Below, in pieces: positions 35,839-58,846 of a stretch of DNA of 64,000 nucleotides (its first letter is position 1; each line of letters opens with the position of its first letter). Origin of the DNA: an uncultured Gammaproteobacteria bacterium (GTDB taxonomy: Bacteria > Patescibacteriota > Microgenomatia > PFEM01 > DATLAM01); NCBI GenBank assembly GCA_964566925.1, contig CAZMIZ010000004.1:35951-99950 (forward strand). The letters are read 5' to 3'. The notes below the pieces were generated by a model. The model was not told the DNA's origin and ran no database searches. It was given only the letters and a program-made list of their open reading frames with translations. A program made the translations under genes and the position numbers.

Positions 35839-37335
35839 CTAAAGGACGACTTTATAAAAATAAAGAAAAGTCTTTTCGTTTCCCTTGCTGACCCTAAAAA
35901 CCAACTCTAAAGGCCAGTCGGTCGGTATTTCTTGAGTTTCGTTGAAGAGAAAATAGGCCGGCTTTTCTTTCGCTTTTTCTAAAACTTCCTCAGGAAATTT
36001 GTTTACCGGCCAATAACCTTTAATTTCCACATTTGGGTGATCCCAAAGATAAAGCTCTAATGAAGCCGGCATCAATCCAAAAGTGCCCTCGGTGGCAATA
36101 AAAATTGGTTTATCTTCTGCCTCTTCTCTGGCAAAAGTAACCACCTCATTAACTCCAAAGCCGGCCGGCCAGTTATCAATATACTGCCCTTTGTCAGCTT
36201 CAGGAATAGGAGCCGCTGTTGGTTCAAAAAGAAGCTTGAGGTCAGTGTATAGCGGCAGAACAAAAAACAAACTGCAAACAATCAAAAAAGTCTTTCGGTT
36301 TTTAACCTTGATGGCTAATTGTTCCAAAGAAGCCGCTGCCAAAATCAACAGAGGTAGGCTCATAAAAAGAATAAACCGGGGGTAGATGACTTTGCCAAAA
36401 AAGGCTAAACCGACAATGGGAATTAAAAACCAAGAGACTAAAAGAAGCTTTTCCTTTGGTCTCTCTCTAATCAACAGTAATGAGCCAGCGGCCAAAAGAA
36501 CAATCGGCCAGGTCAAATAAGTGGTCAGCCAATCAAATAATCCCTTGAGATTACCCCAGAAAAAAAGTAAAGGGTGATCCAGCCATTCCTTGATCGGAAA
36601 AACGAAAGTGGTGTCTTTCTGGGCAATCATGTGGAACCAGGGGGAAAGTCGGAGGATTGAATAGAAAATTTGAGAAATCACTACGGCCAAAACAGCTAAG
36701 CCTGCCCATCTTAATAACCTGGGCCATCTTTTTTTATTCTGCCAATCAAAAAGGATTAAGGTCAATGGAAAAAGATAGAGATTGAAAAAACCGGAAGTTT
36801 TGGTCAAAACCGCGCCACCTAAAACCCAGCCCAGAATTAAGGCCACATCTAACCGAAGGGTTTTAACCAGTAAAATCTCAAAGAGAAGGGAGAGGATGAA
36901 AAAGGTTCCCACCATCGCATCCATCAAGGCCATCCGATCGTAGAGCAAGTAAAAAGGAATGAACAAATAAAGAAGCAGGGCGAAAAGAGCCAGCCGTCTT
37001 TTTTTGAAGAGATTAAGGCTTAAAAACCAAAGGCCAACCAAGGAAACTAAACCTGTTCCCACCGAAACCAGGCGGCCAGCGATCAGGGGATCTTTAATCA
37101 CTTTCATAAAAATCATGGTCAGCCAAACGAAAAGAGGCTGTTTGCCGTCGGTTAAAGAAATAAAACGCCAAGAAGCGTCATTCTTGGCAATTTGAGCCCA
37201 GCGAAGATAAATCGCCTCATCAACAAAAATGGGAATAAGACTTAAGTTGATCAATCGAAAGAGGAAGAAAATTGCCAAAAGCAACAAACCGACAGCCAGT
37301 TCAACTCTAAATTTCTTAATTAACTTAACGATCAT
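35839..37335 (-). CDS. GT39/ArnT-like polytopic glycosyltransferase
   Basis: LFRLINLSLIPIFVDEAIYLRWAQ (the DEx motif of ArnT/PMT), then ~12 TM segments. Confidence 0.65.
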   Translation of the reverse strand: MIVKLIKKFRVELAVGLLLLAIFFLFRLINLSLIPIFVDEAIYLRWAQIAKNDASWRFISLTDGKQPLFVWLTMIFMKVIKDPLIAGRLVSVGTGLVSLVGLWFLSLNLFKKRRLALFALLLYLFIPFYLLYDRMALMDAMVGTFFILSLLFEILLVKTLRLDVALILGWVLGGAVLTKTSGFFNLYLFPLTLILFDWQNKKRWPRLLRWAGLAVLAVVISQIFYSILRLSPWFHMIAQKDTTFVFPIKEWLDHPLLFFWGNLKGLFDWLTTYLTWPIVLLAAGSLLLIRERPKEKLLLVSWFLIPIVGLAFFGKVIYPRFILFMSLPLLILAAASLEQLAIKVKNRKTFLIVCSLFFVLPLYTDLKLLFEPTAAPIPEADKGQYIDNWPAGFGVNEVVTFAREEAEDKPIFIATEGTFGLMPASLELYLWDHPNVEIKGYWPVNKFPEEVLEKAKEKPAYFLFNETQEIPTDWPLELVFRVSKGNEKTFLYFYKVVL

Positions 37336-37344
37336 CTAAAGAAA

Positions 37345-38529
37345 TTATACCTCATTTAACTTTTTCTTCCCAATCAGATAGCTGATTAGCCCTAGCCCAA
37401 TCGGAAAAACAGTTAGCCAAAGTTTAATCGTCGGGACCGGCGGATCCCAATTCCCTAAATAAAGGAAAGGTGAATAGCGCAAAAGACTTCCTAGTGAAAA
37501 TCCAATTGTTAACCAAAAAATAAATCTTTCTTTTGCCATCAGAGCTAGAAAGGGCAGAACCCAAAGAAGATACCATGGCTGGAAGCCAATTTGATAAGTG
37601 GTCGCCAAAACCCCTAAAAATAGAAATAAAATACTAAGAGTGATTAATTTTTGGCAGTCAACTTTTTTTACTCTTAACTCTTGCCAGGCTACCAAGCCAA
37701 AAACTGGCAGGAGAACCACGGTGATATATTTAATCCCAGCCGAAAAAAGCCAAGCCAAAAAAGAAAAGAAAGCTTTTCTCTTTAACCACAAATAAAAAGC
37801 CAGTAAAGCAAAAAAGATCATCACCCCATCGTTATGGGCGCTGACTAAACTTTCTATTAACACCAGTGGGCTAAAAGCATAAAAGGCAAGGTTAAACATT
37901 TTTTGTTTAGGCGCAATAACCGCTGAAATTTCCCAAATTAACCAGAGTGTCCCTAAATAAAAACCAGCCATTAAAGTCTTAAAGGCAAGAAGCTGAAGCA
38001 GAAATTTCCCAAAGCCGGCCAGGAAAGGGATGATCGACAGGCCAATCCAGAGCGGAGGATAAATGCTAGGCCGATGCGTCCAATGCATAAAGCGAACCAT
38101 CGGGTCTTCCGGAAAATCAAGGGGTTTCACCTGATATGGGTTCTGCTGATAAAAAGCAACAATTTTAGCATCAAAGATATAATTGAAAACGTCGTGGGAA
38201 AAAGCTGGATAAGCAAAAAAGAGGATGACCATCGTCAAGATAATTAGGGGCCGCAGTTTTCGAGTTGGGAATTTATTTTTCTTAACCAGCCGTAAAATTA
38301 AAAGATAAAAAGAGAAAAGTAAGCCGAGAATCAGCAAATAAATCAAGGTTGAAAGAGGCCGCTGGAAATAACCAAGATACATAAAGGCCTTTTCTAATCT
38401 CTGCCAGACCGAAACTTGAGAAAGGGTAAGATTTAAATCTATTTGGGTAAATGAATAAAGAAAAAGAGAGAAAACAGTTGCCAGCCAGCCGAAAATGATC
38501 AACTTAATTCTCGTGGGCGTTTTGGTCAT
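37345..38529 (-). CDS. Polytopic membrane protein, unknown (DUF2029/GT-C-like?)
   Basis: 394 aa, all hydrophobic segments. Confidence 0.4.
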   Translation of the reverse strand: MTKTPTRIKLIIFGWLATVFSLFLYSFTQIDLNLTLSQVSVWQRLEKAFMYLGYFQRPLSTLIYLLILGLLFSFYLLILRLVKKNKFPTRKLRPLIILTMVILFFAYPAFSHDVFNYIFDAKIVAFYQQNPYQVKPLDFPEDPMVRFMHWTHRPSIYPPLWIGLSIIPFLAGFGKFLLQLLAFKTLMAGFYLGTLWLIWEISAVIAPKQKMFNLAFYAFSPLVLIESLVSAHNDGVMIFFALLAFYLWLKRKAFFSFLAWLFSAGIKYITVVLLPVFGLVAWQELRVKKVDCQKLITLSILFLFLGVLATTYQIGFQPWYLLWVLPFLALMAKERFIFWLTIGFSLGSLLRYSPFLYLGNWDPPVPTIKLWLTVFPIGLGLISYLIGKKKLNEV

Positions 38530-38531
38530 GG

Positions 38532-39290
38532 CTAATCGTAGAGACCCCTTAAATCATTTATTTTAACCCGTAAAATTTCTTTAAACATTTCTTGAGATTC
38601 CCGGAAAAATTTCCTCTCTTTTCCCTCGGCAATATCTTGATCCTGCCACTGAATCGGCACCTCGGCAATTTTATAGCCTTTTTTCTGAGCAATAAACAGG
38701 AGTTCAACATCCCAAGCCCCTACTCGCCAACCCTTGACTTTTTTGCCTTCTTTAAAAATCAACAACTGCTTAAAAAGATCTTTGCCGACCTGGTTGCTGA
38801 AGGCTTTAAAGCCACACTGGGTGTCAGCGATTTCCCGAAGAAGCAAGGTTTGTCTGACCAGACGGAAAGCATTGGAAGCCACTTGCCGAAACAAGGAGTA
38901 GCCGGTTCGCCTCTGCCCTCTAGAGCCAATAACAACCGGAAAGCCTTTTTTGAAGAAGGGTAAAAGTTTTTCGATTTGGTTAATAGGCGTTGATTGATCC
39001 ATATCACTAAATAGAATAATCTTCCCTTTAGCCTCGATCACTCCGGCTTTAACAGCATAAGGTTTACCAGAGTGAGGATTTTTAAAAAGCTTAAATCGCG
39101 GATGATCTTTAATAAAACTCTCAATTATCTTTCGGCTTTTATCAGTCGAGCCGTCATCAGAAATAATTACTTCACTGGAATAACTTTGTTTTTCGAGATA
39201 ACCATCGATGCCTTCAAGAACGCCTCTTTTAAGGTTTTTCTCTTCGTTATAGCAAGGAATAACCACTGATAAAAATATATTTTTTTTCAT
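38532..39290 (-). CDS. GT2 Dpm1-like polyprenol-phosphate glycosyltransferase
   Basis: MKKNIFLSVVIPCYNEEKNL...VIISDDGSTDKS...FSDMDQSTP...IADTQCGFKAF. The internal start gives an ATGA overlap; the ORF extends to 39410. Confidence 0.75.
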   Translation of the reverse strand: MKKNIFLSVVIPCYNEEKNLKRGVLEGIDGYLEKQSYSSEVIISDDGSTDKSRKIIESFIKDHPRFKLFKNPHSGKPYAVKAGVIEAKGKIILFSDMDQSTPINQIEKLLPFFKKGFPVVIGSRGQRRTGYSLFRQVASNAFRLVRQTLLLREIADTQCGFKAFSNQVGKDLFKQLLIFKEGKKVKGWRVGAWDVELLFIAQKKGYKIAEVPIQWQDQDIAEGKERKFFRESQEMFKEILRVKINDLRGLYD

Positions 39291-40792
39291 TCTTCGGTAT
39301 AATGACTCAATTTCATCACCGTAATCCCTCCGGGAGCAGGCCAACTGCCAACAATCTCGGCTCGGCCAAACCCGGCAATTTCCCAAAGGGAATGACCAAG
39401 AGGCTGGCAATCAGAAACCTCGCAGACTATCAAAAGCTGATCGGTAACCGTTTTTCTTTCAGGATCATTCTGGGGGTTTTCAATCACCACCGGCCGATTT
39501 CCCCAAATTTCTAAAAAATAGCGATAGGCATGATCAGAATTCTGCCTGGTTATAAGGGCAAAGTTAAAAGGCTCCCCATTAGCCTCCCTCAGAATGATGG
39601 CGGCAATCTTTTTTGTCTGATCAAGCTGGCGATTGGGAGTATAACGGAAAGGAACTCCCTTGAGATTGACGGCCACCAGAACAACTAAGAAAAGACTGGC
39701 CGCCATTCGACCTATTGATGATTTCGAAGAAGAAGAAAAGGTAAGACCGGCGAGTAGAAACGGCAGAGGAAACATAAACCCCAAATAGTAATCATAAATT
39801 CCTCTTTGATAAAAACCAAAAAGGCCAACGCCAAAAATTAACCACAAACCAAAAAGAGAAAGGGCTAGAAACCTCTTCTTTTTCCTTGAGGTTATCCAAA
39901 AAAAGATAAAAGTAGCGAGGGTAACCACCAAGGTTATTTGGGCAATGAAAACATAATTGTTGGTCATCAGGCGATTAAAAAGGCGAAAAAGAACATCGCT
40001 AATGGTTGGCCAAAACTGATCCGCCAAAAAACCTGTTTCTTCGCCGTAAAGAAAAAACTGGAAAAAGGTTTTAAAGTTGGGAAATTGATGGCGAAATTCA
40101 AATAAAAGAAAAGGAGACCAGCCGACCAAGAATCCTAGAATGCCTAGAAAATAATATTTTAGATTCTCAATCTTTCGGGTAAAAATCAGGAGATAAAGAA
40201 CAATTACCGGCACCAAAAAGGTGGCCAGATAGTGAAGCTGAAAGGCAATTCCCATTAAGAGACCCACCCCTCCCAGAAGTTTTAATTTTTTCCGAGCAAC
40301 CACCAGCCAAAGAAGATAAAGAGTTAAGAGACAGAAGAAAGGCATCAGGTTAGGATTCCACGAAGAACGGGAATAAGCAAGAATCACCGGCGGCAGAGCA
40401 TAAAGGCCAGCTGCCACTAAGCCTGTCAAGGGATTGAAAAAATCACGACCCACTTTCCAAACTAGGAAAACAGTCGCCACCCCAAAAAGAGCGACCATCA
40501 CCGCCGGCCCTACCGGATCAAGACGGAAAAGCCATAGAAAAGGAAGCATAAAATAGTAATAAATCGGTCCCAAGAAAAAACCGCCCACGCTGGCTGTCGG
40601 ACCAAGAAGAGTCAATTTATGGTCAACCAGAATTCTTTTAACCACTAAAACGTCCCGGCCCTCATCACCCAAAAAAGTCATGTAATCGGCAATCCGATAA
40701 AGGCGCAAAAAGGCAGCCACTCCCAAAATAGCTAACAAAATTGTTGCTTCAAGCTTGTTCTTTTTAAGCCAGCTAATTAATTTTTCCCTCAT
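39287..40792 (-). CDS. GT39/GT83 ArnT-like polytopic glycosyltransferase
   Basis: LRLYRIADYMTFLGDEGRDVLVVKRILVDHKLTLLGPTASVGGFFLGPIYYY. Confidence 0.6.
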   Translation of the reverse strand: MREKLISWLKKNKLEATILLAILGVAAFLRLYRIADYMTFLGDEGRDVLVVKRILVDHKLTLLGPTASVGGFFLGPIYYYFMLPFLWLFRLDPVGPAVMVALFGVATVFLVWKVGRDFFNPLTGLVAAGLYALPPVILAYSRSSWNPNLMPFFCLLTLYLLWLVVARKKLKLLGGVGLLMGIAFQLHYLATFLVPVIVLYLLIFTRKIENLKYYFLGILGFLVGWSPFLLFEFRHQFPNFKTFFQFFLYGEETGFLADQFWPTISDVLFRLFNRLMTNNYVFIAQITLVVTLATFIFFWITSRKKKRFLALSLFGLWLIFGVGLFGFYQRGIYDYYLGFMFPLPFLLAGLTFSSSSKSSIGRMAASLFLVVLVAVNLKGVPFRYTPNRQLDQTKKIAAIILREANGEPFNFALITRQNSDHAYRYFLEIWGNRPVVIENPQNDPERKTVTDQLLIVCEVSDCQPLGHSLWEIAGFGRAEIVGSWPAPGGITVMKLSHYTEE

Positions 40793-41490
40793 AACTTTCT
40801 TCTTAGCTTCATCAATTCAATCAGGCCGCTCAAGCCTACTTTCAAACTGGCTCCAGTTGCCCTGCCTGATTCCCGAGGATAATGATGAACTCCAATCTCT
40901 ACTATTTTAAAACCGGCTTTCTTAGCTTTAATTAAAAGCTCGCTAGAAATAAAAGGGCCCCTCTCTGATTCCAATCGGGGAATTCGATTAATCACCTCTC
41001 TGCTGATCAATTTAAAACCACAATCAATATCTCTTACTTTTAAACCAAATATCAAAGAAACAATCAACTCCCAAACTTTTGATGCCCAAATCCGATATTG
41101 AGGCACTGCTCTTTTTAAATAGTAACCAATTACTAAGTCGGCCTTTGTTTTCTTTTTGGTTTCCAGAAAGTTAGTAATTTCAGAAAAATCAAACTGGCCA
41201 TCAGCATCAATAAGAACAGTTAGGTCGTAAGAAGAATGATAAAGGCCGGATTTAACCGCCGCTCCATAACCCCGATTGGGAGTATGGGCAATCATTCGAA
41301 TCCGCTTCTCTTCGGCGATGAGTCTTTCCACTATCTCGCCAGTTTTGTCGGTTGAGCCATCATTAACCACAATAATCTCCCATTTCTGGGCCACATCAGG
41401 AAGGATTCTGGTTGCCCGGGTGACGGTTTTCTTAATATTGGCTTCTTCATTGTAGGCAGGAAAGAAAACCGAAAGTTCAGCAACCTTCAT
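40789..41490 (-). CDS. GT2 dolichyl/polyprenyl-phosphate mannose (or hexose) synthase, Dpm1-like
   Basis: LSVFFPAYNEEANI...IIVVNDGSTDKT...VLIDADGQFD. Confidence 0.8.
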   Translation of the reverse strand: MKVAELSVFFPAYNEEANIKKTVTRATRILPDVAQKWEIIVVNDGSTDKTGEIVERLIAEEKRIRMIAHTPNRGYGAAVKSGLYHSSYDLTVLIDADGQFDFSEITNFLETKKKTKADLVIGYYLKRAVPQYRIWASKVWELIVSLIFGLKVRDIDCGFKLISREVINRIPRLESERGPFISSELLIKAKKAGFKIVEIGVHHYPRESGRATGASLKVGLSGLIELMKLRRKL

Positions 41491-41529: not shown

Positions 41530-42735
41530 TTAGCTGATCTTTTTCTGGAGCCAACCGAAGAGTTTGGATTTTCTGGTTTTCCAAATAAAGGTGGTATAAG
41601 CAAAATAGTTCCAAATCAGGCCAAAACCAATTCCCATAATAAAGAAGAAGCGATAACCTTCATCTCCCCAGTATGGTTTTAAAACACCCGAAAAAAGACC
41701 ATCCATTAAGCCACCGAAAAACAAAGTACCTAATTCAATCGTTACTCCCTGAATAATAATCGCCCCGACCGAAGTTAAATTAAATTGGAAAAATTTAACT
41801 GGAACCTTTCTTAATGAGGTAATCCTTTTGGCCGCAAAAGTCCAGAAATTATTAAGAGTAAAGTTCGAGATAATCGCCATTTCCGCTCCCAACATCCCGG
41901 AAACCGAAGGCCGGAATCCTAAACGAACAAAAAGCTCCAGACCAATCGTGTTAACAATAAAACCAATAAAACCCACAATCGCGAATTTGATAAACTGAGC
42001 CGAGCGCTCAATTCTAATCTTGGTAGCATTAATCACCGTTTCAATAACGTCTTTGATAAACTGAAGATTAAAGCCAACTTTGGTTTCGCCTGCCCGACGC
42101 TCGCCATAGATAGCCGGAATCTCACAAAATTTGGCTCCGGTTTTAGACAGCTCATAAATCATTGTCGGCTGGATAACAAAACCTTTAACATTTAGCCGGC
42201 TAAAATTGACTTTTTCTAAAACCCCTTTAACCCGAATGGCTTTAAAGTTGCCGGCTAAATCTTTAACCTCTCTAATGCCGGCCCAATAGTGGTTAATCAA
42301 AGTGTTGGAAACAAAGTGAGTTAATTTTCGAAACCAGTCAAAATTATCCTCGCCGCCAGGAACATGGCGTGAAGGCACGACCACATCATAACCTTCTTCA
42401 ATTTTTTTGAGCATCTGGGGAATATATTTGGGGTGCCATTGAAAATCAGCATCATTAGGAATTACTACCTCGGCTTTTAATTTCTTGACTGCATATTGAT
42501 AGCCCTTAATCAAAGAGATGCCCAACCCCCGAGGGGTGAGAAGAAGAAAAAGGTTCTTTCTGGTTTTGGCCATCTTTTTAACCAAATCACCTGTCCCGTC
42601 AGGCGAATGACTATCCACCACTAAATTGATAAATTCATGCTGGGGTAATTTCTTGGCCAACTTCTCTAGATATACAACCATTGGCCTAATGTTTTCTTTC
42701 TCGTTGTAGGTAGAAAGAAGATGGACGATCCGCAT
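41530..42735 (-). CDS. GT2 (Dpm1/Ppm1-like) fused to a C-terminal GtrA-like 4-TM domain
   Basis: N-terminus HLLSTYNEKENI...VVDSHSPDGT...IPNDADFQ. C-terminus FIKFAIVGFIGFIVNTIGLELF...AIISNFTLNNFWTFA is the GtrA signature. Confidence 0.75.
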   Translation of the reverse strand: MRIVHLLSTYNEKENIRPMVVYLEKLAKKLPQHEFINLVVDSHSPDGTGDLVKKMAKTRKNLFLLLTPRGLGISLIKGYQYAVKKLKAEVVIPNDADFQWHPKYIPQMLKKIEEGYDVVVPSRHVPGGEDNFDWFRKLTHFVSNTLINHYWAGIREVKDLAGNFKAIRVKGVLEKVNFSRLNVKGFVIQPTMIYELSKTGAKFCEIPAIYGERRAGETKVGFNLQFIKDVIETVINATKIRIERSAQFIKFAIVGFIGFIVNTIGLELFVRLGFRPSVSGMLGAEMAIISNFTLNNFWTFAAKRITSLRKVPVKFFQFNLTSVGAIIIQGVTIELGTLFFGGLMDGLFSGVLKPYWGDEGYRFFFIMGIGFGLIWNYFAYTTFIWKTRKSKLFGWLQKKIS

Positions 42736-42737
42736 TT

Positions 42738-43691
42738 TTAGACCCTTTCTCGCCAGTAGTCCAGCAAGTCTCTTAAGGTTTTTTCAAAAGGAATTCTTGG
42801 TTGCCAACCTGTCCTTTTTCTAAATTGAGAGTAGTTGCCCTCTAAAATAGGAACATCCGAAGGCCTCATCCGGGCCGGATCCTTTTTTACCTCAATTCTG
42901 GTTTTAGCCATACCGAGGAGCAAATTTAAAACTTCTTTAATGGTAATCGCTTTCCCGGAACAAAGATTGTAAACCTCACCCGGCTCCCCTTTCTGAACTG
43001 CCAATAAGTAGCCCCGGACAATGTCGCGAACGTCAGTAAAATCCCGCTTAGCCTCAAGGTTGCCGACCATCAGCACCGGCTTTTTCTTGCCTTTTTCGAT
43101 CTGGGCAATCTGCTTAGCAAAATTGGAACAGACAAAGGATTCTCCTCTTCTTGGCCCGGTGTGATTAAAAGCCCGGGTACGAATAATTTTCATTTGGTAG
43201 CTTTGAAAATATTGGTAGCCCAACATGTCCATCGCCACTTTGGAAACCGCGTAAGGCGAAAGTGGCCGAAGAGGGTTGGCTTCTTTAACCGGGATTTCAC
43301 TGGGTTTAATTAAGCCATACTCTTCCGAAGAACAGGCAATTTGAATTCTTGGTTTAATCTCTAGTTTTCTGACGGCTTCAAAAAGATGGACCGAACCGAT
43401 GAGGTTAATCTCCAAAGTATTGGCGGGGCTCGCCCAAGAAGTGGGGACAAAAGATTGGGCAGCCAGATGGAAAATAAAATCAGGCTTAACGGTGTGAATC
43501 ACCTCATAAACACTATGGGAATCTAAGATATCAGCGTCGAAAAGTTTTATTTTCTGGCTTAGATGGTCAATGTTTTCGGTTTTACTCCGAGGCCGGGCAG
43601 TACCGAAAACCTGATAACCATTCTTGAGCAGAAGTTCGCTTAGGTGGCTACCGGCAAAACCGGTGATGCCCGTAATTAAAACTTTTTTCAT
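42738..43691 (-). CDS. NAD(P)-dependent sugar epimerase/dehydratase (SDR; GDP-/UDP-sugar 4-reductase/epimerase-like)
   Basis: MKKVLITGITGFAGSHLSELLL is a Rossmann GxxGxxG motif. It also has the YAVSK catalytic motif. Confidence 0.7.
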   Translation of the reverse strand: MKKVLITGITGFAGSHLSELLLKNGYQVFGTARPRSKTENIDHLSQKIKLFDADILDSHSVYEVIHTVKPDFIFHLAAQSFVPTSWASPANTLEINLIGSVHLFEAVRKLEIKPRIQIACSSEEYGLIKPSEIPVKEANPLRPLSPYAVSKVAMDMLGYQYFQSYQMKIIRTRAFNHTGPRRGESFVCSNFAKQIAQIEKGKKKPVLMVGNLEAKRDFTDVRDIVRGYLLAVQKGEPGEVYNLCSGKAITIKEVLNLLLGMAKTRIEVKKDPARMRPSDVPILEGNYSQFRKRTGWQPRIPFEKTLRDLLDYWRERV

Positions 43692-44971
43692 CGACCAACT
43701 CCTTCGTAGATAAAGCCAAGTTTTTCTAACTTTTTTCGATTATAAACGTTTCTGCCATCAACTACAAGTGAAGTTTTCATTAATTTCTTGACTTTTTGGA
43801 AATCCAGTTCCTGATACTCCTTCCACTCTGTTACTAAAAGGAGTGCATTTGCTCCTTTCAGCGCTTGATAAGGGTCAGAAAAAAATCTCACCCCTTTTAA
43901 AATCTTTTTCGCTTCCGGAATGGCCGCCGGATCACAAGCCCGAACCTGAGCTCCTCTTTTCTTTAAGCCTTTAACTACGTAAATTGAGCGGGCGGCGCGC
44001 ATATCCGAAGTCTCCGGCTTAAAAGCAAGGCCTAAGACAGCCACTTTTTTACCTTTAATGGTTCCGCCACAAAGTCGAACGGCTTTTCCAAGAAAATAAT
44101 CAATTTGGGCCTGATTAGCTGCCTGAACCGCTTTTAAAATTTGAAAATCATATTTTTCTCTAGCGGCCAACCTAATCAGGGCTTCAACGTCTTTAGGGAA
44201 ACAAGCCCCACCATAACCAAGTCCGGCTCTAAGAAAATCAGGACCCACTCTTTTATCCATTCCTAAACCTGCCATCACCTTATTAACATCCGCCCCAAAA
44301 CGATCGCAAAGAACTGCAATGGCGTTAGCAAATGAGATCTTAGTAGGCAAAAAGGCATTGGCCGCATATTTAATCATTTGGGCGCTGGCCGGATCGCAAA
44401 TCAATCTTTTTCCTGGAAGCTTCTGGTGTAACTTGAGCAATTCCTTGGCCACCGAATTCTTGTTAGTACCAATAATCACCCGATAAGGATTTAAGGTGTC
44501 TTCGATTGCCCTACCTTCAGCCAAAAATTCTGGCACTGAAGCAAGCTCAAAATTCGATCGCGTATGTTTTTTTATCCATTTTTCAAGCTCTTGGTTAATA
44601 CCTGGAGGAACGGTACTTTTAAGAACAATAATCGCTGGCTTCTTAAGGTTCTCGGCAATCGATTTCGTTGCCGAATAAACAAAATTTAAATCGATTTCGC
44701 CGTTTTTATTAGGAGTGCCCACACAAACAAAAATTACCTCCGCTCCAGGGATAGCTTCTCGATAATGACTGGTAAATTTAAGCCGGTTCGCTTTAAGATT
44801 CTTGGTAATTAACTTTTCCAACCCAGGCTCGTAAAAAGGGACTTTTCCTTGAGAAAGTTTTTTTATCTTTTGACGATCAATCTCCACTACCCAAACTTGA
44901 TGGCCAAGATCAGCAAAAACCCCAGCGGTGACTAAACCAACAAAACCAGCGCCAATGACCGCTAAATTCAT
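43688..44971 (-). CDS. ugd: UDP-glucose/GDP-mannose dehydrogenase family (UDP-glucose 6-dehydrogenase-like)
   Basis: MNLAVIGAGFVGLVTAGVFADLGHQV and GGACFPKDVEAL are the catalytic Cys motif. Confidence 0.85.
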   Translation of the reverse strand: MNLAVIGAGFVGLVTAGVFADLGHQVWVVEIDRQKIKKLSQGKVPFYEPGLEKLITKNLKANRLKFTSHYREAIPGAEVIFVCVGTPNKNGEIDLNFVYSATKSIAENLKKPAIIVLKSTVPPGINQELEKWIKKHTRSNFELASVPEFLAEGRAIEDTLNPYRVIIGTNKNSVAKELLKLHQKLPGKRLICDPASAQMIKYAANAFLPTKISFANAIAVLCDRFGADVNKVMAGLGMDKRVGPDFLRAGLGYGGACFPKDVEALIRLAAREKYDFQILKAVQAANQAQIDYFLGKAVRLCGGTIKGKKVAVLGLAFKPETSDMRAARSIYVVKGLKKRGAQVRACDPAAIPEAKKILKGVRFFSDPYQALKGANALLLVTEWKEYQELDFQKVKKLMKTSLVVDGRNVYNRKKLEKLGFIYEGVGR

Positions 44972-48591: not shown

Positions 48592-49905
48592 TTAAAAGAC
48601 TCCTAACAGGGTCACTACCTTGCGACCCTGGCGACCATTGGGAGCGAATTTTAAACTCCCATTTTTTAAGTATCTATATTTTAAGTAAAAGAGGTTACCA
48701 AAAACAACTATTTTCTTATTATCACGATAAACCATCTTCGCTGAGCCACCGGGATCAGTGGCCACCACTTTAATTGCCTGAGGATACATTTCAAAAGCAA
48801 AGTCAGCCAATTCTTGAGGGGTCACCCCAGGATAAATATTACCCGCTTGAGGGATGCCATCCACGGTGATGGCCACCAGTCGGCCATCTTTTAGGAGCGC
48901 CAAAGCGGCTCGGGCCAATTTGATTCCTTCTCGATGAGGCCGGTTACAAAGAGACGCGTCGTTTTCGTGGCCCTCAACGATGGACTGTTGAATCCGTTTT
49001 TTCTTATTTCGGAAAAGTTGAGGTCCAATACTGACGGCATCTAAAATTCCCTCTTGATCCAACCAGCGGATGTCAATCGCTGACAAAAGATCGCCTTTTT
49101 TGACTCCTTCTAAAAGCTTTTCTTTGCCGGAGAGAACCATCAACCCTTGGGTCACCGCTGTCCCTCCGCCTTTCCTAATTTCGACTACTCTCAATTTGCC
49201 TCTCCGGTGGTCAATGATCAGATCAGTCACCCCCTGCTTCGGGGTTAAAACTTTTTTGGCCAATCTTCCTGCTCCCATGATTCTATCCATATAAGGAATA
49301 ATCCGGCTCGCTGAGGCAGTGTAAACAATTATCTCGTCTGGCGCCAAGCAAGATCTGGCTAGCATTTTCGCCCCTCGCCACTTAAATTTTTGGTTGCCAA
49401 TTTTCAAAGTTCCCTTGGCTTCCACAAAAGGCAGTTTAATTCGGCCGTCTTGGTAAATCGCCGCCGCTGTCCGATTAACCACTGGCAGCTGATAAAGTTT
49501 TTTCTGATGAATAAAAAGATTGTTAACTTTAATCTTGGGGGCCGGGATTTCGTCTTCTTTAGAGTTGGTGGTGAAATAAAAATAGCCCAGGGTGGCTAAA
49601 CCTAAGATTTTAGGGGTCTTTTCAAAAACCTTAACCGGAAACTCTCCTTTATTTTTAAAAATAATCCTCAATTTTCTTTTTTGAGGATCTATTTCCAAAC
49701 AACGATAATTAGTAAAACCTTGCTTAAAGTCGAGGTGGCCCTTTTTTAGGATTAGGCCGGGGGCTAACGCTTGCTGGCTTTTTTTATCCCTTACCTGATT
49801 GAGGGCAAAGAGCCGATGTGATTGCTCCCAAGAAGTAATCCTTTTAGGGGCGTCAAAAGTGCCTAGAGGAAAAAGATGTTTATATTTTGAAACCAAATAA
49901 GTCAT
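48592..49905 (-). CDS. Phosphodiester glycosidase-family (DUF2233/NAGPA-like) protein
   Basis: C-terminus DGRLVAITVDGIPQAGNIYPGVTPQELADFAFEMYPQAIKVVATDPGGSAKMV matches the DGR...G.T..ELA.....A.NLDGGGS..M pattern. Confidence 0.5.
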   Translation of the reverse strand: MTYLVSKYKHLFPLGTFDAPKRITSWEQSHRLFALNQVRDKKSQQALAPGLILKKGHLDFKQGFTNYRCLEIDPQKRKLRIIFKNKGEFPVKVFEKTPKILGLATLGYFYFTTNSKEDEIPAPKIKVNNLFIHQKKLYQLPVVNRTAAAIYQDGRIKLPFVEAKGTLKIGNQKFKWRGAKMLARSCLAPDEIIVYTASASRIIPYMDRIMGAGRLAKKVLTPKQGVTDLIIDHRRGKLRVVEIRKGGGTAVTQGLMVLSGKEKLLEGVKKGDLLSAIDIRWLDQEGILDAVSIGPQLFRNKKKRIQQSIVEGHENDASLCNRPHREGIKLARAALALLKDGRLVAITVDGIPQAGNIYPGVTPQELADFAFEMYPQAIKVVATDPGGSAKMVYRDNKKIVVFGNLFYLKYRYLKNGSLKFAPNGRQGRKVVTLLGVF

Positions 49906-53973: not shown

Positions 53974-53999
53974 CTTAGTATAATAAACTCCATTATTAG
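53974..53999. promoter_or_regulatory. Copy 2 of the element; the TATACTAAGC box lies 2-11 nt upstream of the minus-strand ATG of the TrpR-like gene (-10-like TATACT)
   Basis: cttagtataataaactccattattag. The same box sits 8-17 nt upstream of the DUF458 ATG. Confidence 0.5.
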
Positions 54000-54006
54000 A
54001 GTAAAG

Positions 54007-54276: not shown

Positions 54277-54285
54277 AAACTCTCT

Positions 54286-55209
54286 TTATAAAATGGCTCC
54301 TTGCTGGGTTAAAAGAGCGGCTAAAAGCAAAGTGCCAATTAAGGCGAGATGAGCTAAATTCCGCCCTGCTAGCCGGACGACCTTCTTACGGTGGACTAAA
54401 ACCAGATCAAAAATAAGCGCCCCAAAAAGGACCCCCATAACCAAAATTGCCAAAGTCTTAGTTAGGAAAAAAGGGCTGAAAAGGGGTGGAGTCGATCTTT
54501 CCTCACCGGTAGATTGATTGAGAGCGGCTACCAATTCTTCTTCAACCGCCGAAGCTTCTCCAAGCCTGCTAACCGGCGATTCAACCGTTTCTGGAGGAGA
54601 GGTTTGAGAATAGTTCTGGACGACGGGAGCCGGAGCGGGAGTCGGTGTTCCAAAAAGCTGAACGACTAAAGTCGTCTCTATTCCTTGTAAGGTTCCGTCC
54701 ACCACCGCCAAGCCAATCTCTTCATAATGACCATTCAAGAGATTGTCTTTATGAGACGGGGAAGCCATCCAGGCCTGAACTACCTCTTCAGGGGTATAAA
54801 AATCTCGGGCCAAGTTTTCACCGGCATAAAGGTAACTATAGCCGGCTTGCTGGAAAAAGAACCAAGGATTCCGTCCCGAAGGAGAATTATGCGCCCAGTA
54901 ATCCAAGGCAAACATATCCCCGGCCTTGGCTAAGGCGGCTTGGTTTAAAGTTTGATTAATCTCTAAGGGTGCCAAACCATTTTCTAATCGTTTTTGATTG
55001 GTTAACTCAATCACCCGCTCAGGCGTAATTGCTGAAGCAAAACCAAGAACATGAGGTGAAACAAGAATAAAAAAGTTTAATCCAAATTGGCCAACCAAGA
55101 ACAAAGCCACTAAAACCGATAAAGAAGCAGGGTGAAGAATCTTAGCTTTGTAGTTATTACCCTGATGGGGAATGAAAAAATGGTGGCACCATTTGAGCAG
55201 GTTTTCCAT
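54286..55209 (-). CDS. CAP/SCP (PR-1-like, YkwD-type) domain membrane protein
   Basis: ELTNQKRLENGLAPLEINQTLNQAALAKAGDMFALDYWAHNSPSGRNPW...GENLARDF...SPSHKDNLLNGHYEEIGLAV, with N- and C-terminal TM segments. Confidence 0.8.
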   Translation of the reverse strand: MENLLKWCHHFFIPHQGNNYKAKILHPASLSVLVALFLVGQFGLNFFILVSPHVLGFASAITPERVIELTNQKRLENGLAPLEINQTLNQAALAKAGDMFALDYWAHNSPSGRNPWFFFQQAGYSYLYAGENLARDFYTPEEVVQAWMASPSHKDNLLNGHYEEIGLAVVDGTLQGIETTLVVQLFGTPTPAPAPVVQNYSQTSPPETVESPVSRLGEASAVEEELVAALNQSTGEERSTPPLFSPFFLTKTLAILVMGVLFGALIFDLVLVHRKKVVRLAGRNLAHLALIGTLLLAALLTQQGAIL

Positions 55210-55280
55210 TTTGAGTGTTAACGAAAAACAAGGTTCTTGCCAAAGGCAAGGTTCTTATCAGTTTTCATGATAGCACTACT

Positions 55281-55850
55281 TCATTCTGGTTGCAATCTAG
55301 CTCTCACCACATAGCGTTGGGAATCCCAAAAACCAGTGCAAGTATAGAGAGTTAAGATGGCTTCTTTGGTGGGAGACAAGATCTCGACGAAATCAGGGGA
55401 AACTGTTTTAGTTTCCGTTAGTTGGTAAACAAATTCCTCTCCTTTTTTATTAAAAATTTTAATCTCAACTCCCTTTTCCAGCCACCTGATTGGCCCAAAA
55501 AGATTATTTTTATTGTGGCCGTAAATAACCGTATTTCCTTCTCTCCCAGGAATACCGGAGCCAAGAAGATAAGAAACGCCTTCGTCGGCAACTTGCCACT
55601 GATCATTGGTTACTTCGGCCAAAAAAACAGGCAAATCAATCCCTACCTGGGGAATTACAACTCTTTCCGGTAAATCCTCTTCTTTAACCTCGGTTTGGGT
55701 TTCAGGAAAACTGGCAAAGGAAAGGCTGTTCTCCTGGAATTGAGAGGCTTTTTGCCAAAGAAAAGCTAAAATTAAAAAAGAAAAACCAAGAAAAAAGAGG
55801 ATTAAGCCGATCTTTTGACGGGAAGAAGCCTTAAGCCAACACCGGTGCAT
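55281..55850 (-). CDS. Sortase (class E-like transpeptidase)
   Basis: N-terminal TM, His in NTVIYGHN, and the TLxTC motif LTLYTCTG with a downstream Arg. 49-nt overlap with the upstream substrate gene. Confidence 0.8.
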   Translation of the reverse strand: MHRCWLKASSRQKIGLILFFLGFSFLILAFLWQKASQFQENSLSFASFPETQTEVKEEDLPERVVIPQVGIDLPVFLAEVTNDQWQVADEGVSYLLGSGIPGREGNTVIYGHNKNNLFGPIRWLEKGVEIKIFNKKGEEFVYQLTETKTVSPDFVEILSPTKEAILTLYTCTGFWDSQRYVVRARLQPE

Positions 55851-56674
55851 ACACTACCCATTATAAACAAAAGGTAAAAAAGATTCTCGGCTAAACTGCC
55901 TGTGTCTGCTAAAGTGGTCGCTCCTAAGACCTGACCTCTTCCTAAAACTTGACCAGTACAAATTTCATTGGAAGGATCACTCGGAGCACAATCATTAACC
56001 GCCCGAACAATAAAGCAATAATCAGATCCCAAATCTAAACCGCCTACAGAATAAGCGGTAACCTTGCCAGTATTATCAACCCCATAAAGATAACTACCTG
56101 AAGAAAAACCATAGGAAATCTGGTAGTGGGTGGCTGGTTCAACGGCCGTCCAACTTAAATCAGCACTGCTCCCACTTTTAATGGCACTCAAAAGAGTTGG
56201 CGCTGACGGAATGGTGGCCCCACAAACAAAAGGTTCACCTGGTCCGCCGGTACCCCCATTATCACCGCCATCGCCACCGTCCCCGCCGTTACTGGGGGGA
56301 GTGGTGGGAGTCGGAGTTGGAGTCAAGGTTGAGGTTGGGGTGGGGGTTTCTCCTGAACAGTCGCAGTCTGTTTCTTCCCAACAAGCCGGATTCCGACAAA
56401 CCAGCCTACCATCTATCTCATATTCGTTTAAATCTCCTAAGCAGAATGATGGACAACCACCACACTCACAAGGAGTCTGATCACATCCACCACAATCTTG
56501 ACAATCTGGACAATCTGGACAAGAGCATTCTCCACAATCCTCACAAATTGAACCACAACCACTAGGACAAACCCCGTCTTGAATGGCTAAGGCTGCAGCG
56601 CTTGTCAAGAATAAAAGCGCCAGGAAAATGAAACCGATTTTAATTAGTCGCGGAGAAATTTTTTGTTTAAACAT
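55802..56674 (-). CDS. Secreted Cys-rich surface protein with Thr/Pro linker, Fn3-like domain and C-terminal LAxTG-type sorting signal
   Basis: Signal peptide; CPDCPDCQDCGGC-type Cys cluster; TPTPTSTLTPTPTPTT linker. C-terminus LADTGS + hydrophobic LFYLLFIMGSVCTGVGL + RLLPVKRSA. Confidence 0.6.
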   Translation of the reverse strand: MFKQKISPRLIKIGFIFLALLFLTSAAALAIQDGVCPSGCGSICEDCGECSCPDCPDCQDCGGCDQTPCECGGCPSFCLGDLNEYEIDGRLVCRNPACWEETDCDCSGETPTPTSTLTPTPTPTTPPSNGGDGGDGGDNGGTGGPGEPFVCGATIPSAPTLLSAIKSGSSADLSWTAVEPATHYQISYGFSSGSYLYGVDNTGKVTAYSVGGLDLGSDYCFIVRAVNDCAPSDPSNEICTGQVLGRGQVLGATTLADTGSLAENLFYLLFIMGSVCTGVGLRLLPVKRSA

Positions 56675-56731
56675 TCTATCGAGGCAGTTGGCCTATATTA
56701 TACACACCGAAACAAACTTGTCAAGTGAAAA

Positions 56732-58846
56732 CTAACTAAAGAAAGAAGCCAAACTCATTAAGAAGGAGCGAAAAGCCGCTGATCTGGCGCTAAGAAAGCC
56801 TCGGCTGGTTGCTAAAGCCCCTATTAGTTCTCTTCTTCTTCGGTATCCCTTAGTTGATAGGTAGGTGGCCAAGGAACCGAAAAGAATCACCCATAGTTTT
56901 TGTTCTTGGGTCATTCCCGCCGGGGCCGTTGTCACTCCTAAAGTACCGCCACCCCCAGCCGCTTCCACCTCTTGACTGGCTCCAGGAATCAAAGGTAAAG
57001 AACCACCGATCAGAAAAGGACTCTCTGATGAAGCCGAAATCAACTGATCATCTGGGCCAACGTAACCTGAAGCCACGGCTCGAGCTAGATATTCACCCGG
57101 GGGAGCATCTTGGGAAAGAACCAAGCCGGTAGTCACCTTAACGCCTTTACCGGCATCAAGATCACCTAAATCAAAAATCCCGCCACCCATATCAATTCCG
57201 TCCTTAATCAAATTAATCGCCAGCTTAGTATCATAAACTCGACCGGTTCCCGGATTTTTAACGACAACAAAGAAAGTAACGGTGTCGCCCGGAAGAACAT
57301 GAGTGCCCACATTATGACTCAAATTAACTTCCAGAAGTCCCCCTTCTTGGTGAAGCTCTAAACCTGAATCTTCATGAGCCGAAGTTGTCTCAATTGGGGA
57401 GTCAGGGTTATTTTCCGGATCAGTGGCAAAAAGACTGGCGCCACCAATATCCCCATCAAGAGAACCAAAGATATTAATAAAACCTAAAAAGCCAAACGAA
57501 CGAATAATTGAGGAATTAACAAAATTAATAATCGAAATCGCACTGTAGGCATCCCCAGTTTCAATCTCTGCTTCCCCACCTTCAATTGAATTCCCGCCGG
57601 TATTGGCAGTTGAGGAAACATTGTTGACCACACAGGCTTGATTATCAACCAAAACCACATCGCCACAGGTGGAACAACTACTATCACTATCAGTACTTGA
57701 ACTAGTGGAACTCAATAACAAATTGCCGCCTCCAGCTAAACCTTCCAGCTCATTCCAACCCAAAAAGTCTCCTAGCCATTGGCCAAAAGTATTAACCACC
57801 AAATGATAGAAAGTAACGTCAACCAAACTGGTATTAACTAAATTAACCAAATTAACCACGCTTTGGGCATTACCGGTAGTGATACTGGCGCTCTCGGTGC
57901 TCGTAATTGAGTTCTGGCCACTGATGGCTGAGGAATCAACCTGATTTTCAACCGTCGCCTCGTTTTCTATTTTTACGACCTCACCGCAGCAGTTATCTTC
58001 AGTCGAGAACTCAGGTAAAAGAATGTTTCCTTCAACCCCGCCAAAAATGTTAATCGTCACGATATGAACGGTGGAATCAATAAAGGTCGTATTCACCTTA
58101 TTAAGTAAGGAAACAATTGAAACGGCATCGCCGGTATTGATCACCGCTTCTTCAGCCCCTTCAATTGAGTTATCCCCGGTATTGGCTGAAGAAACAATCT
58201 CGTTAGAGAGATAGGCGAAATTCTGATTATTAATGACGGAAACATTAACCACCGGTTCTTGATTGTCATTTTGAATAAAAACGTTATTGGCAATTGCCAG
58301 GGGTGTCGTGGTTAAATCGATATCCCCACCCTGGGGAACAAAAATATTTAAAGTTTGGTACAAAACCTGGGAATTGACTTCCGTCGAATTGACTTCATTT
58401 TCCACTTCCACCACGGAAACGGCATCACCGGTTTCAATTACCGCCGGTGAAGGCGTGGGCGTCGGCGTCTCTTCAGGAAGGGTTTCGGTTTCTCCCGTCG
58501 TTTCTTCGGTGGCACTGGGAGTGGCTTCTTCAGTGGTTAAGGGATCAATCGTTGGAGTGGGCGTCGGTTCCTCAATTGAATTTTCACCACTGATCGCCGT
58601 TGAGTCAACTTCGTTGGTCACTTCGGCTTCGTTTTCAATTTCGGCGGTCGTCGCCTCTTCTTCAGTTTCCTCAGGTGGGTCGCAAGGCGGCAAAGAATCA
58701 CCAGATTCATCCGTGGTTTCCGTTGTCTGCACCTCTGGATCGTCTCCTGAACCAGCTTCTTCAGCTAAAACGGCTCTAAAGCCCAGCTGACCCACGGCCA
58801 GTAAGAAAATGATCCAGATTGCTAAACCTTTTTTAATTTTTTTCAT
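56732..58846 (-). CDS. Secreted 704-aa acidic repeat protein ('TGDNSI' repeat family), Thr/Pro-rich N-terminal region
   Basis: Signal peptide MKKIKKGLAIWIIFLLAVG. Four ~90-aa repeats with core N.V.S.A.TG.NSI.G....I.TGDA.S...L.N.VN(T/S). Confidence 0.6.
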   Translation of the reverse strand: MKKIKKGLAIWIIFLLAVGQLGFRAVLAEEAGSGDDPEVQTTETTDESGDSLPPCDPPEETEEEATTAEIENEAEVTNEVDSTAISGENSIEEPTPTPTIDPLTTEEATPSATEETTGETETLPEETPTPTPSPAVIETGDAVSVVEVENEVNSTEVNSQVLYQTLNIFVPQGGDIDLTTTPLAIANNVFIQNDNQEPVVNVSVINNQNFAYLSNEIVSSANTGDNSIEGAEEAVINTGDAVSIVSLLNKVNTTFIDSTVHIVTINIFGGVEGNILLPEFSTEDNCCGEVVKIENEATVENQVDSSAISGQNSITSTESASITTGNAQSVVNLVNLVNTSLVDVTFYHLVVNTFGQWLGDFLGWNELEGLAGGGNLLLSSTSSSTDSDSSCSTCGDVVLVDNQACVVNNVSSTANTGGNSIEGGEAEIETGDAYSAISIINFVNSSIIRSFGFLGFINIFGSLDGDIGGASLFATDPENNPDSPIETTSAHEDSGLELHQEGGLLEVNLSHNVGTHVLPGDTVTFFVVVKNPGTGRVYDTKLAINLIKDGIDMGGGIFDLGDLDAGKGVKVTTGLVLSQDAPPGEYLARAVASGYVGPDDQLISASSESPFLIGGSLPLIPGASQEVEAAGGGGTLGVTTAPAGMTQEQKLWVILFGSLATYLSTKGYRRRRELIGALATSRGFLSARSAAFRSFLMSLASFFS

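Follow-up and report, generated by a model that had tools for sequence, protein, structure and literature searches.

What is made by a bacterial gene region that is crowded with membrane-embedded sugar transferases and with the enzymes that would supply them? The question is raised by positions 35839-58846 of a 64,000-nucleotide stretch of DNA, which was analysed at its full length and is called the window here. An original prediction, made from the letters of this DNA, had proposed that the region encodes protein O-mannosylation of the actinobacterial kind, with GT39 protein mannosyltransferases (Pmt), Ppm1-type synthases of polyprenyl-phosphate sugars and, as probable substrates, two nearby secreted proteins with Thr/Pro-rich linkers. 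The open reading frames (ORFs) and both quoted linker strings are indeed present in the translations. We favour, at a probability of roughly 0.6, a different reading, in which a large cell-envelope glycan island of the Microgenomates (Patescibacteria, or candidate phyla radiation, CPR) has its conserved core in this region and would carry out multi-module glycosylation outside the cytoplasm from lipid-phosphate-linked sugars. Homology and conserved synteny indicate that this core joins nucleotide-sugar supply to a GT2 enzyme with the architecture of a dolichol-phosphate-mannose synthase (DPMS), paired with GT-C transferases. The genes of the core are as follows (TM, transmembrane; SDR, short-chain dehydrogenase/reductase; aa, amino acids).

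46157-48589, minus strand: dTDP-rhamnose genes RmlD (46157-47038), RmlC-like (47035-47589) and RmlB (47576-48589), by Pfam RmlD_sub_bind, dTDP_sugar_isom and GDP_Man_Dehyd/Epimerase.
43688-44971, minus strand: UDP-glucose 6-dehydrogenase (Ugd), with all three UDPG_MGDP_dh domains.
42738-43691, minus strand: extended SDR, nearest to GDP-6-deoxy-D-lyxo-4-hexulose reductase (Rmd; PDB 2pk3, E=3.1e-91).
41530-42735, minus strand: putative DPMS-type polyprenyl-phosphate-sugar synthase, with a GT2 domain (Pfam, residues 8-152) and a C-terminal GtrA/DPMS domain of four TM segments (GtrA_DPMS_TM, residues 250-385).
40789-41490, minus strand: soluble Dpm1/ArnC/GtrB-like GT2 by its PDB matches, a second candidate lipid-phosphate-sugar synthase.
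39287-40792, minus strand: GT-C glycosyltransferase of 501 aa, here PMT2a (Pfam PMT_2), conserved partner of the DPMS-type synthase.
38532-39290, minus strand: third short GT2, GtrB/ArnC/PgfS-like (Pfam GT2; NCBIfam PgfS and ArnC at 56-59 bits, below their cut-offs).
37345-38529, minus strand: MptA/MptB-like GT-C, from a family of polymer-extending mannosyltransferases (PF26314 MptA_B_family, precomputed on an identical protein), with eight predicted TM segments.
35839-37335, minus strand: GT-C glycosyltransferase, here PMT2b (Pfam PMT_2, 40.5 bits).
28647-35833, minus strand: four GT-C-like proteins directly downstream of PMT2b by Pfam, namely YfhO (33422-35833), PTPS_related (31779-33503), DUF2079 (30364-31782) and PTPS_related/PMT_2 (28647-30374).

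Residues 2-328 of the protein encoded at 41530-42735 align with residues 24-333 of the Pyrococcus furiosus DPMS (5mlz, E=1.3e-29), from the catalytic domain into the TM domain. Its NDADFQ lies opposite the metal-binding MDADLQ of DPMS, with DAD kept, and GtrA_DPMS_TM scores 48.6 bits. The protein thus unites a GT2 domain, a DxD motif and DPMS similarity reaching the membrane domain, as members of the DPMS/Dpm1/Ppm1 group do. A GT2-GtrA fusion had been predicted at this position and Pfam finds both domains there; judged by the alignment, its architecture is that of a DPMS and not of a flippase fusion, and the Pfam domain is now named GtrA/DPMS TM. No free-standing GtrA occurs in the window, where the GtrA-like domain is fused to the GT2 and a Wzx is encoded at 24471-25922. 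Mycobacterial Ppm1 is a fusion to an Lnt-like (CN-hydrolase) membrane domain. Such a domain was not seen by Pfam on 41530-42735, which yielded GT2 and GtrA_DPMS_TM only.

The prediction of four Dpm1-like GT2s also agrees with our count, which gives nine GT2s in the window, four of them short and Dpm1/GtrB-like (12527-13255, 38532-39410, 40789-41490 and 41530-42735). The soluble enzyme at 40789-41490 matches ArnC (E=3.4e-20), GtrB (9e-14) and DPMS (1.3e-13) in the PDB, and its NCBIfam matches all lie far under the cut-offs. Given that none of the GT2s at 38532, 40789 and 41530 reaches an NCBIfam equivalog threshold, and that the GT2s of the window score comparably against ArnC, GtrB, PgfS and PpgS, synthases that use other sugars, the donor sugar cannot be called. 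A sugar derived from GDP-mannose is one possibility, since the neighbouring SDR, which Ugd adjoins, is nearest to Rmd; this SDR reaches no NCBIfam equivalog cut-off, and Pfam scans showed no ManB or ManC in the window.

The core is conserved. We compared 80 species-level related loci over 10 kb around the homologue of PMT2a (39287-40792), and in 77 of these the DPMS-type synthase adjoins it. A GT2 of the lipid-phosphate-sugar-synthase type is thus genetically paired with a GT-C membrane enzyme, which is the arrangement of multi-component transmembrane glycosylation systems. Upstream of the pair lie the Rmd-like SDR (69/80, in one to three copies), Ugd and RmlB (66/80 each) and RmlD (64/80). 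The third GT2 (39/80), the MptA/B-like gene (37/80), PMT2b (33/80), the PTPS-related genes (31/80 and 27/80) and Wzx (25/80) recur as well; the soluble GT2 of 40789-41490 is found in only five. The usual order, on one strand, is CAP-RmlA-RmlB-RmlD-Ugd-SDR-DPMS-PMT2a-GT2-MptAB-PMT2b-PTPS-PTPS-GT2-Wzx-GT2, and 51 of the loci contain the CAP/YkwD protein. In L002 and L003, two relatives for which we read all gene calls, an ABC-2 exporter pair directly follows PMT2a.

The homologues of three different window proteins all come from Microgenomates within the Patescibacteria (Gottesman-, Levy-, Shapiro-, Curtiss-, Davies- and Beckwithbacteria), and the GC content is 41% throughout the window, so the actinobacterial frame does not apply. 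The best match among GTDB species representatives stands at 72%, and an identical GT-C is present on a Logan contig from SRR14817123; for the GT2 fusion, a look-up by exact sequence returned no record. Many public records of metagenome-assembled genomes that hold the Microgenomates module (for example L004, L008 and L009, binchicken co-assemblies) are titled 'uncultured Gammaproteobacteria bacterium', and one homologue bears the label Bathyarchaeia; such titles are apparently placeholders or taxonomically wrong.

Are the GT-C enzymes Pmts? Of the roughly six GT39-like enzymes predicted, the number holds for PMT_2 (PF13231), whose gathering score is passed by 5590-7098, 6812-8434, 8431-10065, 28647-30374, 35839-37335 and 39287-40792. 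Of these, just the final pair falls within 35839-58846, and the GT39 identity is not supported, as neither PMT_4TMC nor a match to a Pmt was found. The PMT_4TMC domain is shared by eukaryotic and actinobacterial Pmts. Neither it (PF16192) nor MIR was detected at E<=10 in 6812-8434, 8431-10065, 35839-37335 or 39287-40792, and PF16192 is absent from the precomputed Pfam column of 240 listed homologues. PDB sequence searches with 39287-40792, 35839-37335 and the YfhO protein 33422-35833, and PDB profile searches with PMT2a and PMT2b, returned no GT-C match, and hence the classification rested on predicted folds. The most PMT-like paralogue, 6812-8434, matched ArnT (E=0.005, or 5.6e-4 with a 32-sequence profile) and STT3 (5.8e-3), and up to E=10 it matched no Pmt among all PDB chains by sequence or profile. 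Foldseek ranked ArnT first and Pmt4 23rd; in the fold searches ArnT, ALG12, AglB and Pmt4 lie at about equal distance, and the GT-Cs are no closer to the solved Pmt1, Pmt2 and Pmt4 than to other GT-C families.

The Asp-Glu loop whose retention the original prediction wished to see checked is in place. All ten aligned paralogues have an acidic motif in loop 1, which is Asp-Glu itself in six of them (GDE, VDE, WDE and DDE variants, in the ORFs that start at 39287, 35839, 27056, 6812, 8431 and 28647); it is invariant in three orthologue alignments, and in PMT2b it takes the form PIF(T)DEAIY after TM1, unchanged in 25 orthologues. HDGE and HDDE follow TM1 among the GT-C-like proteins of 28647-35833. 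However, the motif is a hallmark of GT-C fold enzymes generally, equivalent to D55 of ArnT (PMC8698208), and occurs in all GT-C families (PMC6801728), so it does not distinguish a Pmt from an ArnT or any other GT-C. The original prediction had named a better alignment to ArnT than to Pmt, with loss of this motif, as evidence that would speak against it. ArnT does come before Pmt by sequence and by Foldseek, whereas the motif is retained, and the comparison is undecisive because DE does not discriminate. Pfam 'PMT_2' matches, 'glycosyltransferase family 39' labels and the DE motif should therefore be read with caution, as they do not identify protein mannosyltransferases.

The proposal that the PMT_2 proteins are GT39 Pmts and the Dpm1-like GT2s Ppm1-type synthases, which together O-mannosylate the two linker proteins as in actinobacteria, consequently appears improbable to us, even though it can draw on the DE of six paralogues, on two paralogues (6812-8434 and 8431-10065) that pass the Pfam PMT model PF02366, on a dolichol-phosphate-mannose synthase as the best solved relative of the GT2 fusion and on Rmd, the best solved relative of the adjoining SDR, which acts on a GDP-mannose-derived sugar. 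The bacterium does not belong to the actinobacteria, no PMT_4TMC or MIR was detected, ArnT and STT3 are matched where no Pmt chain is, DE is generic, and neither ManB/ManC nor an Lnt-like Ppm1 domain was seen in the window. What survives of the predicted pathway is its general chemistry, lipid-phosphate-sugar synthases beside GT-Cs as in Ppm1/Pmt systems; membership in GT39 or Ppm1 is not demonstrable.

The prominence of ArnT raises a second possibility, in which Ugd, the SDR, an ArnC-like GT2 and an ArnT-like GT-C would decorate the head group of a membrane lipid or glycolipid with a sugar derived from UDP-glucuronate. The order Ugd-SDR-GT2-GT-C mirrors ugd/arnA/arnC/arnT and is kept in 66-77 of the 80 relatives, ArnT is, among solved structures, the best sequence and profile match of 6812-8434 and of its family profile with STT3 as the only other GT-C family matched, ArnC is the best solved relative of 40789-41490, and source annotations read 'ArnT family' or '4-amino-4-deoxy-L-arabinose transferase-like'. 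Yet the ArnT equivalog (NF009784) reaches only 17.5 bits against a cut-off of 567 on 6812-8434 and 8431-10065 and has no match on 35839 or 39287, the ArnC equivalog falls short likewise (80 versus 529 bits), and Pfam finds neither an ArnB aminotransferase nor an ArnA formyltransferase nor an ArnD domain. In its matches the SDR resembles Rmd/GMD (E=3e-91) and not a decarboxylase (UXS, about 1e-23). CPR bacteria are monoderm and are not known to possess lipid A, which makes a lipid A acceptor unexpected, and we regard this reading as unlikely. By any discriminating feature that we could compare, the GT-Cs are neither GT39 Pmts nor GT83 ArnTs.

Most GT-C paralogues share less than 30% pairwise identity or are undetectable to one another by BLAST, which marks them by sequence comparison as ancient and deeply diverged; given this divergence each probably has its own donor and acceptor. 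In PMT2a, residues ~380-501 form a C-terminal alpha/beta domain that is predicted to lie outside the membrane, with NFAL, NSDH, RYF, two Cys and LWE.AGFG as invariants, and this domain may be the acceptor-binding domain. The MptA/B-like protein matches TIGR03459 MptA at E=1.5e-9, with 37 bits against a cut-off of 439 bits.

The core extends into a much larger array. Minus-strand genes run nearly uninterrupted from 970 to 45378, and the 35 glycan-related genes together occupy 45.5 kb (71% of the window). These include 17 polytopic GT-C-like proteins (three YfhO, three PTPS_related, one DUF2079, one PIG-V-like and one MptA_B-like among them, plus unassigned membrane proteins) and, besides the GT2s, two GT4, the Wzx flippase, RmlB/C/D, Ugd, the Rmd-like SDR and a GalE-like epimerase. 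The remainder of the island comprises:

970-28684, minus strand: Wzx flippase (24471-25922), two GT4, six GT2 and two YfhO, each YfhO beside a GT2.
970-28684, minus strand, GT-C-like: the PMT-like paralogues 6812-8434 and 8431-10065, a PMT_2 protein (5590-7098), a PIG-V-like protein (970-2109) and unassigned polytopic proteins.

The three YfhO ORFs (33422-35833, 10062-12530 and 15820-18159) all pass the Pfam cut-off, and the first of them starts 6 bases outside the left boundary of the predicted region. In Curtissbacteria, members of the 6812-8434 family stand in arrays that hold as many as six PMT/PMT_2 genes together with YfhO and GT2 genes. The listed starts of ORFs 5590-7098 and 38532-39410 are both TTG and overlap the upstream genes by ~290 and ~120 bases. 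An internal ATG near 6849 is the more likely start of the former; that of the 38532 GT2 probably lies near 39266-39290, with an internal ATG near 39290, and on the identical contig a 244-aa product is called for it. Scans for tRNA genes and Rfam families found nothing in the window. Beside RmlB, a 437-aa protein (48592-49905) ends in a NAGPA domain (phosphodiester glycosidase, 'uncovering enzyme') and has no obvious signal peptide; it occurs in none of the 80 related loci.

Taken together, these genes are consistent with a pathway in which RmlBCD, Ugd and the Rmd-like reductase would supply nucleotide sugars in the cytoplasm and the three short GT2s, one of DPMS architecture, would by their homology each place a single sugar on polyprenyl phosphate. 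The lipid-phosphate sugar would then be flipped to the outer face, where the GT-Cs (PMT2a, MptA/B-like, PMT2b, YfhO, PTPS-related and DUF2079) would transfer the sugar to an extracellular acceptor by way of the acidic motif after TM1, a loop that should face outside by GT-C topology. Each diverged paralogue would have a donor and an acceptor of its own. Most of the island may build or decorate a glycopolymer linked to the wall or membrane, and at least one GT-C may also O-glycosylate surface proteins at linkers rich in Ser, Thr and Pro. Assembly of a glycopolymer is suggested by the neighbours, namely the rhamnose genes, Wzx, the GT4 and GT2 enzymes, the MptA/B-like enzyme and, in two relatives, the ABC-2 pair. 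Furthermore, the Gram-positive PMT_2-domain GT-Cs with an assigned function (GtlB, GttB, GtcC, CsdD, CsdF, GtsC and GacL) all act on lipoteichoic acid, wall teichoic acid, rhamnan or secondary cell-wall polysaccharide (PMC8035078, Table 2).

Several observations weigh against the glycan-island reading. Pfam scans of the window recognised no initiating phosphoglycosyltransferase, Wzy polymerase, LCP ligase or teichoic-acid gene, and for this reason the glycopolymer itself can only be inferred; the ABC-2 exporter of the relatives is missing from the window too. By structure-based alignment, paralogues 6812-8434 and 8431-10065 are 17-18% identical to Pmt4 and Pmt2, more than to any other solved GT-C, and they score 40.3 and 34.5 bits on PF02366, which passes its gathering score, although each scores higher on PMT_2; 35839-37335 and 39287-40792 match PMT_2 only. 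YfhO-family GT-Cs are proven protein O-glycosyltransferases in streptococci (PMC12041528), and a surface-protein cluster with conserved Ser/Thr-Pro linkers lies 10-20 kb away. Neither the identity of the sugar nor the use of protein Ser/Thr as acceptor can be read from the sequence. The streptococcal precedent, the ORFs that pass the PMT model and the nearby linker cluster make a protein acceptor entirely possible for part of the island. The genes of that cluster, preceded by the gene for a CAP protein, are:

54286-55209, minus strand: membrane-anchored CAP/YkwD-family protein with a linker containing Pro, Thr and Ser (Pfam CAP; NCBIfam YkwD, 110.9 bits versus a 171-bit cut-off).
55281-55850, minus strand: sortase (Pfam Sortase, 84.9 bits; NCBIfam sortase_fam above its cut-off, no class assigned).
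55802-56674, minus strand: secreted protein of 290 aa, by its translation and Pfam fn3, with signal peptide, Cys-rich region, the linker TPTPTSTLTPTPTPTT, an fn3 domain, and LADTG, TM segment and basic tail.
56732-58846, minus strand: surface protein of 704 aa, by its translation, with signal peptide, four internal repeats and a C-terminal TM anchor.
58942-59373, minus strand: secreted protein of 143 aa, by its translation, with two copies of the repeat of the 704-aa protein; conserved partner gene of the 704-aa family.

That both linker proteins are secreted, as had been predicted, and lie at the surface agrees with their N-termini, which look like signal peptides on inspection. In the 704-aa protein the Thr/Pro/Glu-rich stretch is an insertion inside repeat 1 and not an inter-domain linker. 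The 290-aa protein is probably a sortase substrate, with a sorting signal of LADTG, a hydrophobic segment and KRSA and a sortase gene directly downstream. Its counterparts in Beckwithbacteria have Ser-Pro linkers and end in GQVLGAMADTG, a TM segment and KK, and the homologues in L085 carry MADTG signals. The 704-aa protein has its C-terminal TM anchor and no LPXTG-like motif. It matches no Pfam or NCBIfam family, and none of its at least 235 homologues has a Pfam domain; all are from Microgenomates where the source names the organism. A Ser/Thr/Pro-rich region recurs in 25 of 29 sampled homologues. In these 25 the region from signal peptide to first repeat core spans 64-161 aa, with a median Ser+Thr+Pro fraction of 0.41 as against 0.20 elsewhere in the protein. 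A strict Thr/Pro filter was passed by one of 62 coding-strand ORFs of at least 80 aa.

A surface cluster of this kind is conserved in Microgenomates (window 55281-59990, minus strand; L085 7511-14231; L087 9469-12220; L088 9010-13290), recurring in Beckwithbacteria and others, and comprises proteins of ~110-128, ~143-158 and ~700 aa, one or two small Cys-rich proteins ending in (L/M)ADTG, TM segment and basic tail, and a sortase; no structural protein of the cluster is assigned to a Pfam or NCBIfam family. In L085-L088 a gene for 142-158 aa directly precedes the 704-family gene, and the repeat motif is visible in L085, L087 and L088, the three sequences read. In the (S/T)P linkers of the L085 and L088 sortase clusters, which score 17-19 of 20 residues, Ser and Thr interchange and Pro is kept. 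L088 also has a repeat domain, a Thr-Pro linker and a sortase domain fused in one protein of 313 aa. In L087 (5090-6501), the neighbours of the 704-aa cluster include a Peptidase_M73 (camelysin/TasA-like) protein and one of 222 aa with a TM segment at its N-terminus, which hints that the cluster may form a fibre or matrix.

The 704-aa protein has four copies of an undescribed repeat, N.V.(S/T).A.(S/T)G.N.I ... TG(D/N)A.S.V...N.VN(S/T)(S/T), and the 143-aa protein has two; in the 704-aa protein the first half reads N.V.S.A.(S/T)G.NSI. Each of the window's six units closes with an N-x-S/T sequon, which would invite a reading as N-glycosylation; no window protein has the WWDxG motif of oligosaccharyltransferases, so this reading was rejected and the sequon may be structural.

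Judged by their sequences, the linker proteins are real surface proteins with low-complexity linkers rich in hydroxy-amino acids and Pro, and the composition recurs in the relatives examined. Pmt glycosylates comparable Ser/Thr-rich linkers in actinobacteria (PMC11727336), as do GtrB/PgtC2 or Pgf enzymes in streptococci (PMC12041528), and the former precedent, with the secretion and conserved composition of the linkers, is a further point for Pmt-type O-mannosylation. Linkage argues against it: within 10 kb of the conserved GT-C, the 80 relatives show a sortase in two loci, the 290-aa protein in one and the 704-aa family in none. A relaxed search upstream of CAP found sortase or repeat proteins in 2-3 of 32 loci and, seen from the 704-aa side in four genomes, Rml/CAP genes are adjacent in two and the DPMS/GT-C core lies within 10 kb in none. 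In the window the linker genes are ~10 kb from the nearest GT-C gene, with plus-strand TrmD and RtcB and several unrelated genes between, and hence they do not share an operon with the GT-Cs. The assignment of the two proteins as substrates is therefore plausible, with no conserved linkage behind it.

The same linkers could instead be modified as in streptococci. A GtrB/PgfS-like GT2 would make a polyprenyl-phosphate sugar, and a YfhO GT-C (any of the three) or another paralogue would glycosylate Ser/Thr/Pro-rich disordered regions of surface proteins such as 55802-56674 and 56732-58846. Two of the YfhO genes stand beside a GT2, and there is weak similarity to PgfM1/PgfM2 (27-28 bits on YfhO 33422-35833) and to PgfS (57-68 bits on the GT2s), but these scores lie far below the equivalog cut-offs of 1400-1500 and 500 bits. 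GtrB with PgtC2, and PgfS with PgfM1, glycosylate Ser/Thr-rich disordered regions including those of sortase-anchored adhesins encoded in the Pgf cluster (PMC12041528), which fits the (S/T)P linkers of the L085 and L088 sortase clusters and the constant position of the disordered region in 25 members of the 704-aa family. Against this, teichoic acids are also targets of YfhO enzymes (PMC8035078), conserved linkage is lacking between the surface cluster and the GT-C genes, and Pro-rich linkers can be plain spacers. We hold the proposal to be possible but doubtful. By analogy the GT2-YfhO pair of streptococci is nevertheless the closest mechanistic analogue for a monoderm non-actinobacterium that glycosylates such linkers.

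Other acceptors and transfer routes were considered. The CAP protein is a neighbour in 51 of the 80 loci and was a candidate for a conserved substrate; it was set aside as its linker varies in composition and in many cases is not rich in Ser/Thr. En bloc O-glycosylation by an enzyme like O-antigen ligase was rejected too, as the window has no Wzy_C/O-antigen-ligase Pfam match. Across Microgenomates the CAP/YkwD gene is the usual first gene of the CAP-RmlA-RmlB-RmlD-Ugd-SDR-DPMS-GT-C row, and its protein is weakly similar to the divisome-associated lipoprotein DalA.

The glycan-island reading matters because the cell envelope of CPR/Patescibacteria is almost uncharacterised; a recent study of Saccharibacteria calls their glycosylation processes 'unexplored' (PMC11623550), and a literature search on CPR with GT-C or mannosyltransferase found nothing specific. 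Here a Microgenomates genome devotes ~45 kb to glycosylation that would be lipid-linked and take place outside the membrane. As a tentative idea, which we think less probable than not by a good way, Microgenomates with genomes of ~1 Mb might use the DPMS-type and GT-C module, with up to 17 GT-C paralogues, to build an undescribed CPR envelope glycoconjugate, be it a lipomannan-like or rhamnose-/uronic-acid polymer or dense O-glycosylation of the (S/T)P linkers of the lineage-wide sortase-linked cluster. If so, it could underlie how episymbionts present themselves to hosts and phages, and the GT-C families that have no profile-level match to solved GT-Cs would be new CAZy-level families with new acceptor specificities. 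The DPMS-type synthase and its adjacent 501-aa GT-C form a tractable pair for heterologous expression, for which the conserved Ser/Thr-Pro-linker surface proteins could serve as reporters.

Among known systems, the actinobacterial Ppm1/Pmt pathway (PMC5882110, PMC8698208, PMC11727336) shares with the island a lipid-phosphate-sugar donor, GT-Cs with a loop-1 DE and Ser/Thr-rich linkers as plausible acceptors, and its Pfam PMT N-terminal model is passed by two paralogues here; the island differs in having no PMT_4TMC, no detected similarity to solved Pmts, no GDP-mannose genes nearby and no Lnt-like synthase. The ArnT/ArnC pathway of lipid A aminoarabinose transfer (GT83) is alike in gene order and in ArnT being the best Foldseek and sequence/profile match among solved structures, but its aminotransferase, formyltransferase and deformylase have no counterpart here and its equivalog thresholds are not reached. 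The streptococcal Pgf and GtrB-PgtC2 systems resemble ours as monoderm pairs of GT2 and YfhO GT-C with sortase- or membrane-anchored, Ser/Thr-rich disordered proteins in the wider neighbourhood. The similarity to these is at superfamily level only, and here the candidate substrates are 10-20 kb away, outside the operon and not conserved neighbours.

In the Gram-positive multi-component systems (CsbB-GtcA-YfhO, GtlA-GtlB, CsdAB/CD/EF-CflA and GacI-GacJ-GacK-GacL; PMC8035078), a GT-A/GT2 enzyme encoded by a paired gene makes a polyprenyl-phosphate monosaccharide that a PMT_2 or YfhO GT-C transfers outside the membrane, and there is linkage to rhamnose-polysaccharide genes and a Wzx-type flippase, as here. 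The island is set apart by its 17 GT-C-like paralogues in one place, by a synthase built like the archaeal/eukaryotic DPMS, in which a fused GtrA-like TM domain stands in place of a separate GtrA flippase, by the lack of recognised teichoic-acid or rhamnan backbone genes and of any equivalog match, and by its CPR lineage, from which it is known as sequence. Assembly of lipomannan and lipoarabinomannan in mycobacteria and corynebacteria (Ppm1, MptA/MptB and other GT-Cs) is comparable in that many GT-C paralogues extend an envelope glycan outside the membrane from polyprenyl-phosphate sugars, with an MptA_B member among them; in the island, by contrast, the resemblance to MptA is weak, nothing equivalent to PimA/PimE or Emb/Aft was identified, and the polymer is hypothetical. 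By analogy, these comparisons suggest Gram-positive rhamnan and teichoic-acid decoration and actinobacterial lipomannan as the closest parallels of the glycopolymer that we envisage.

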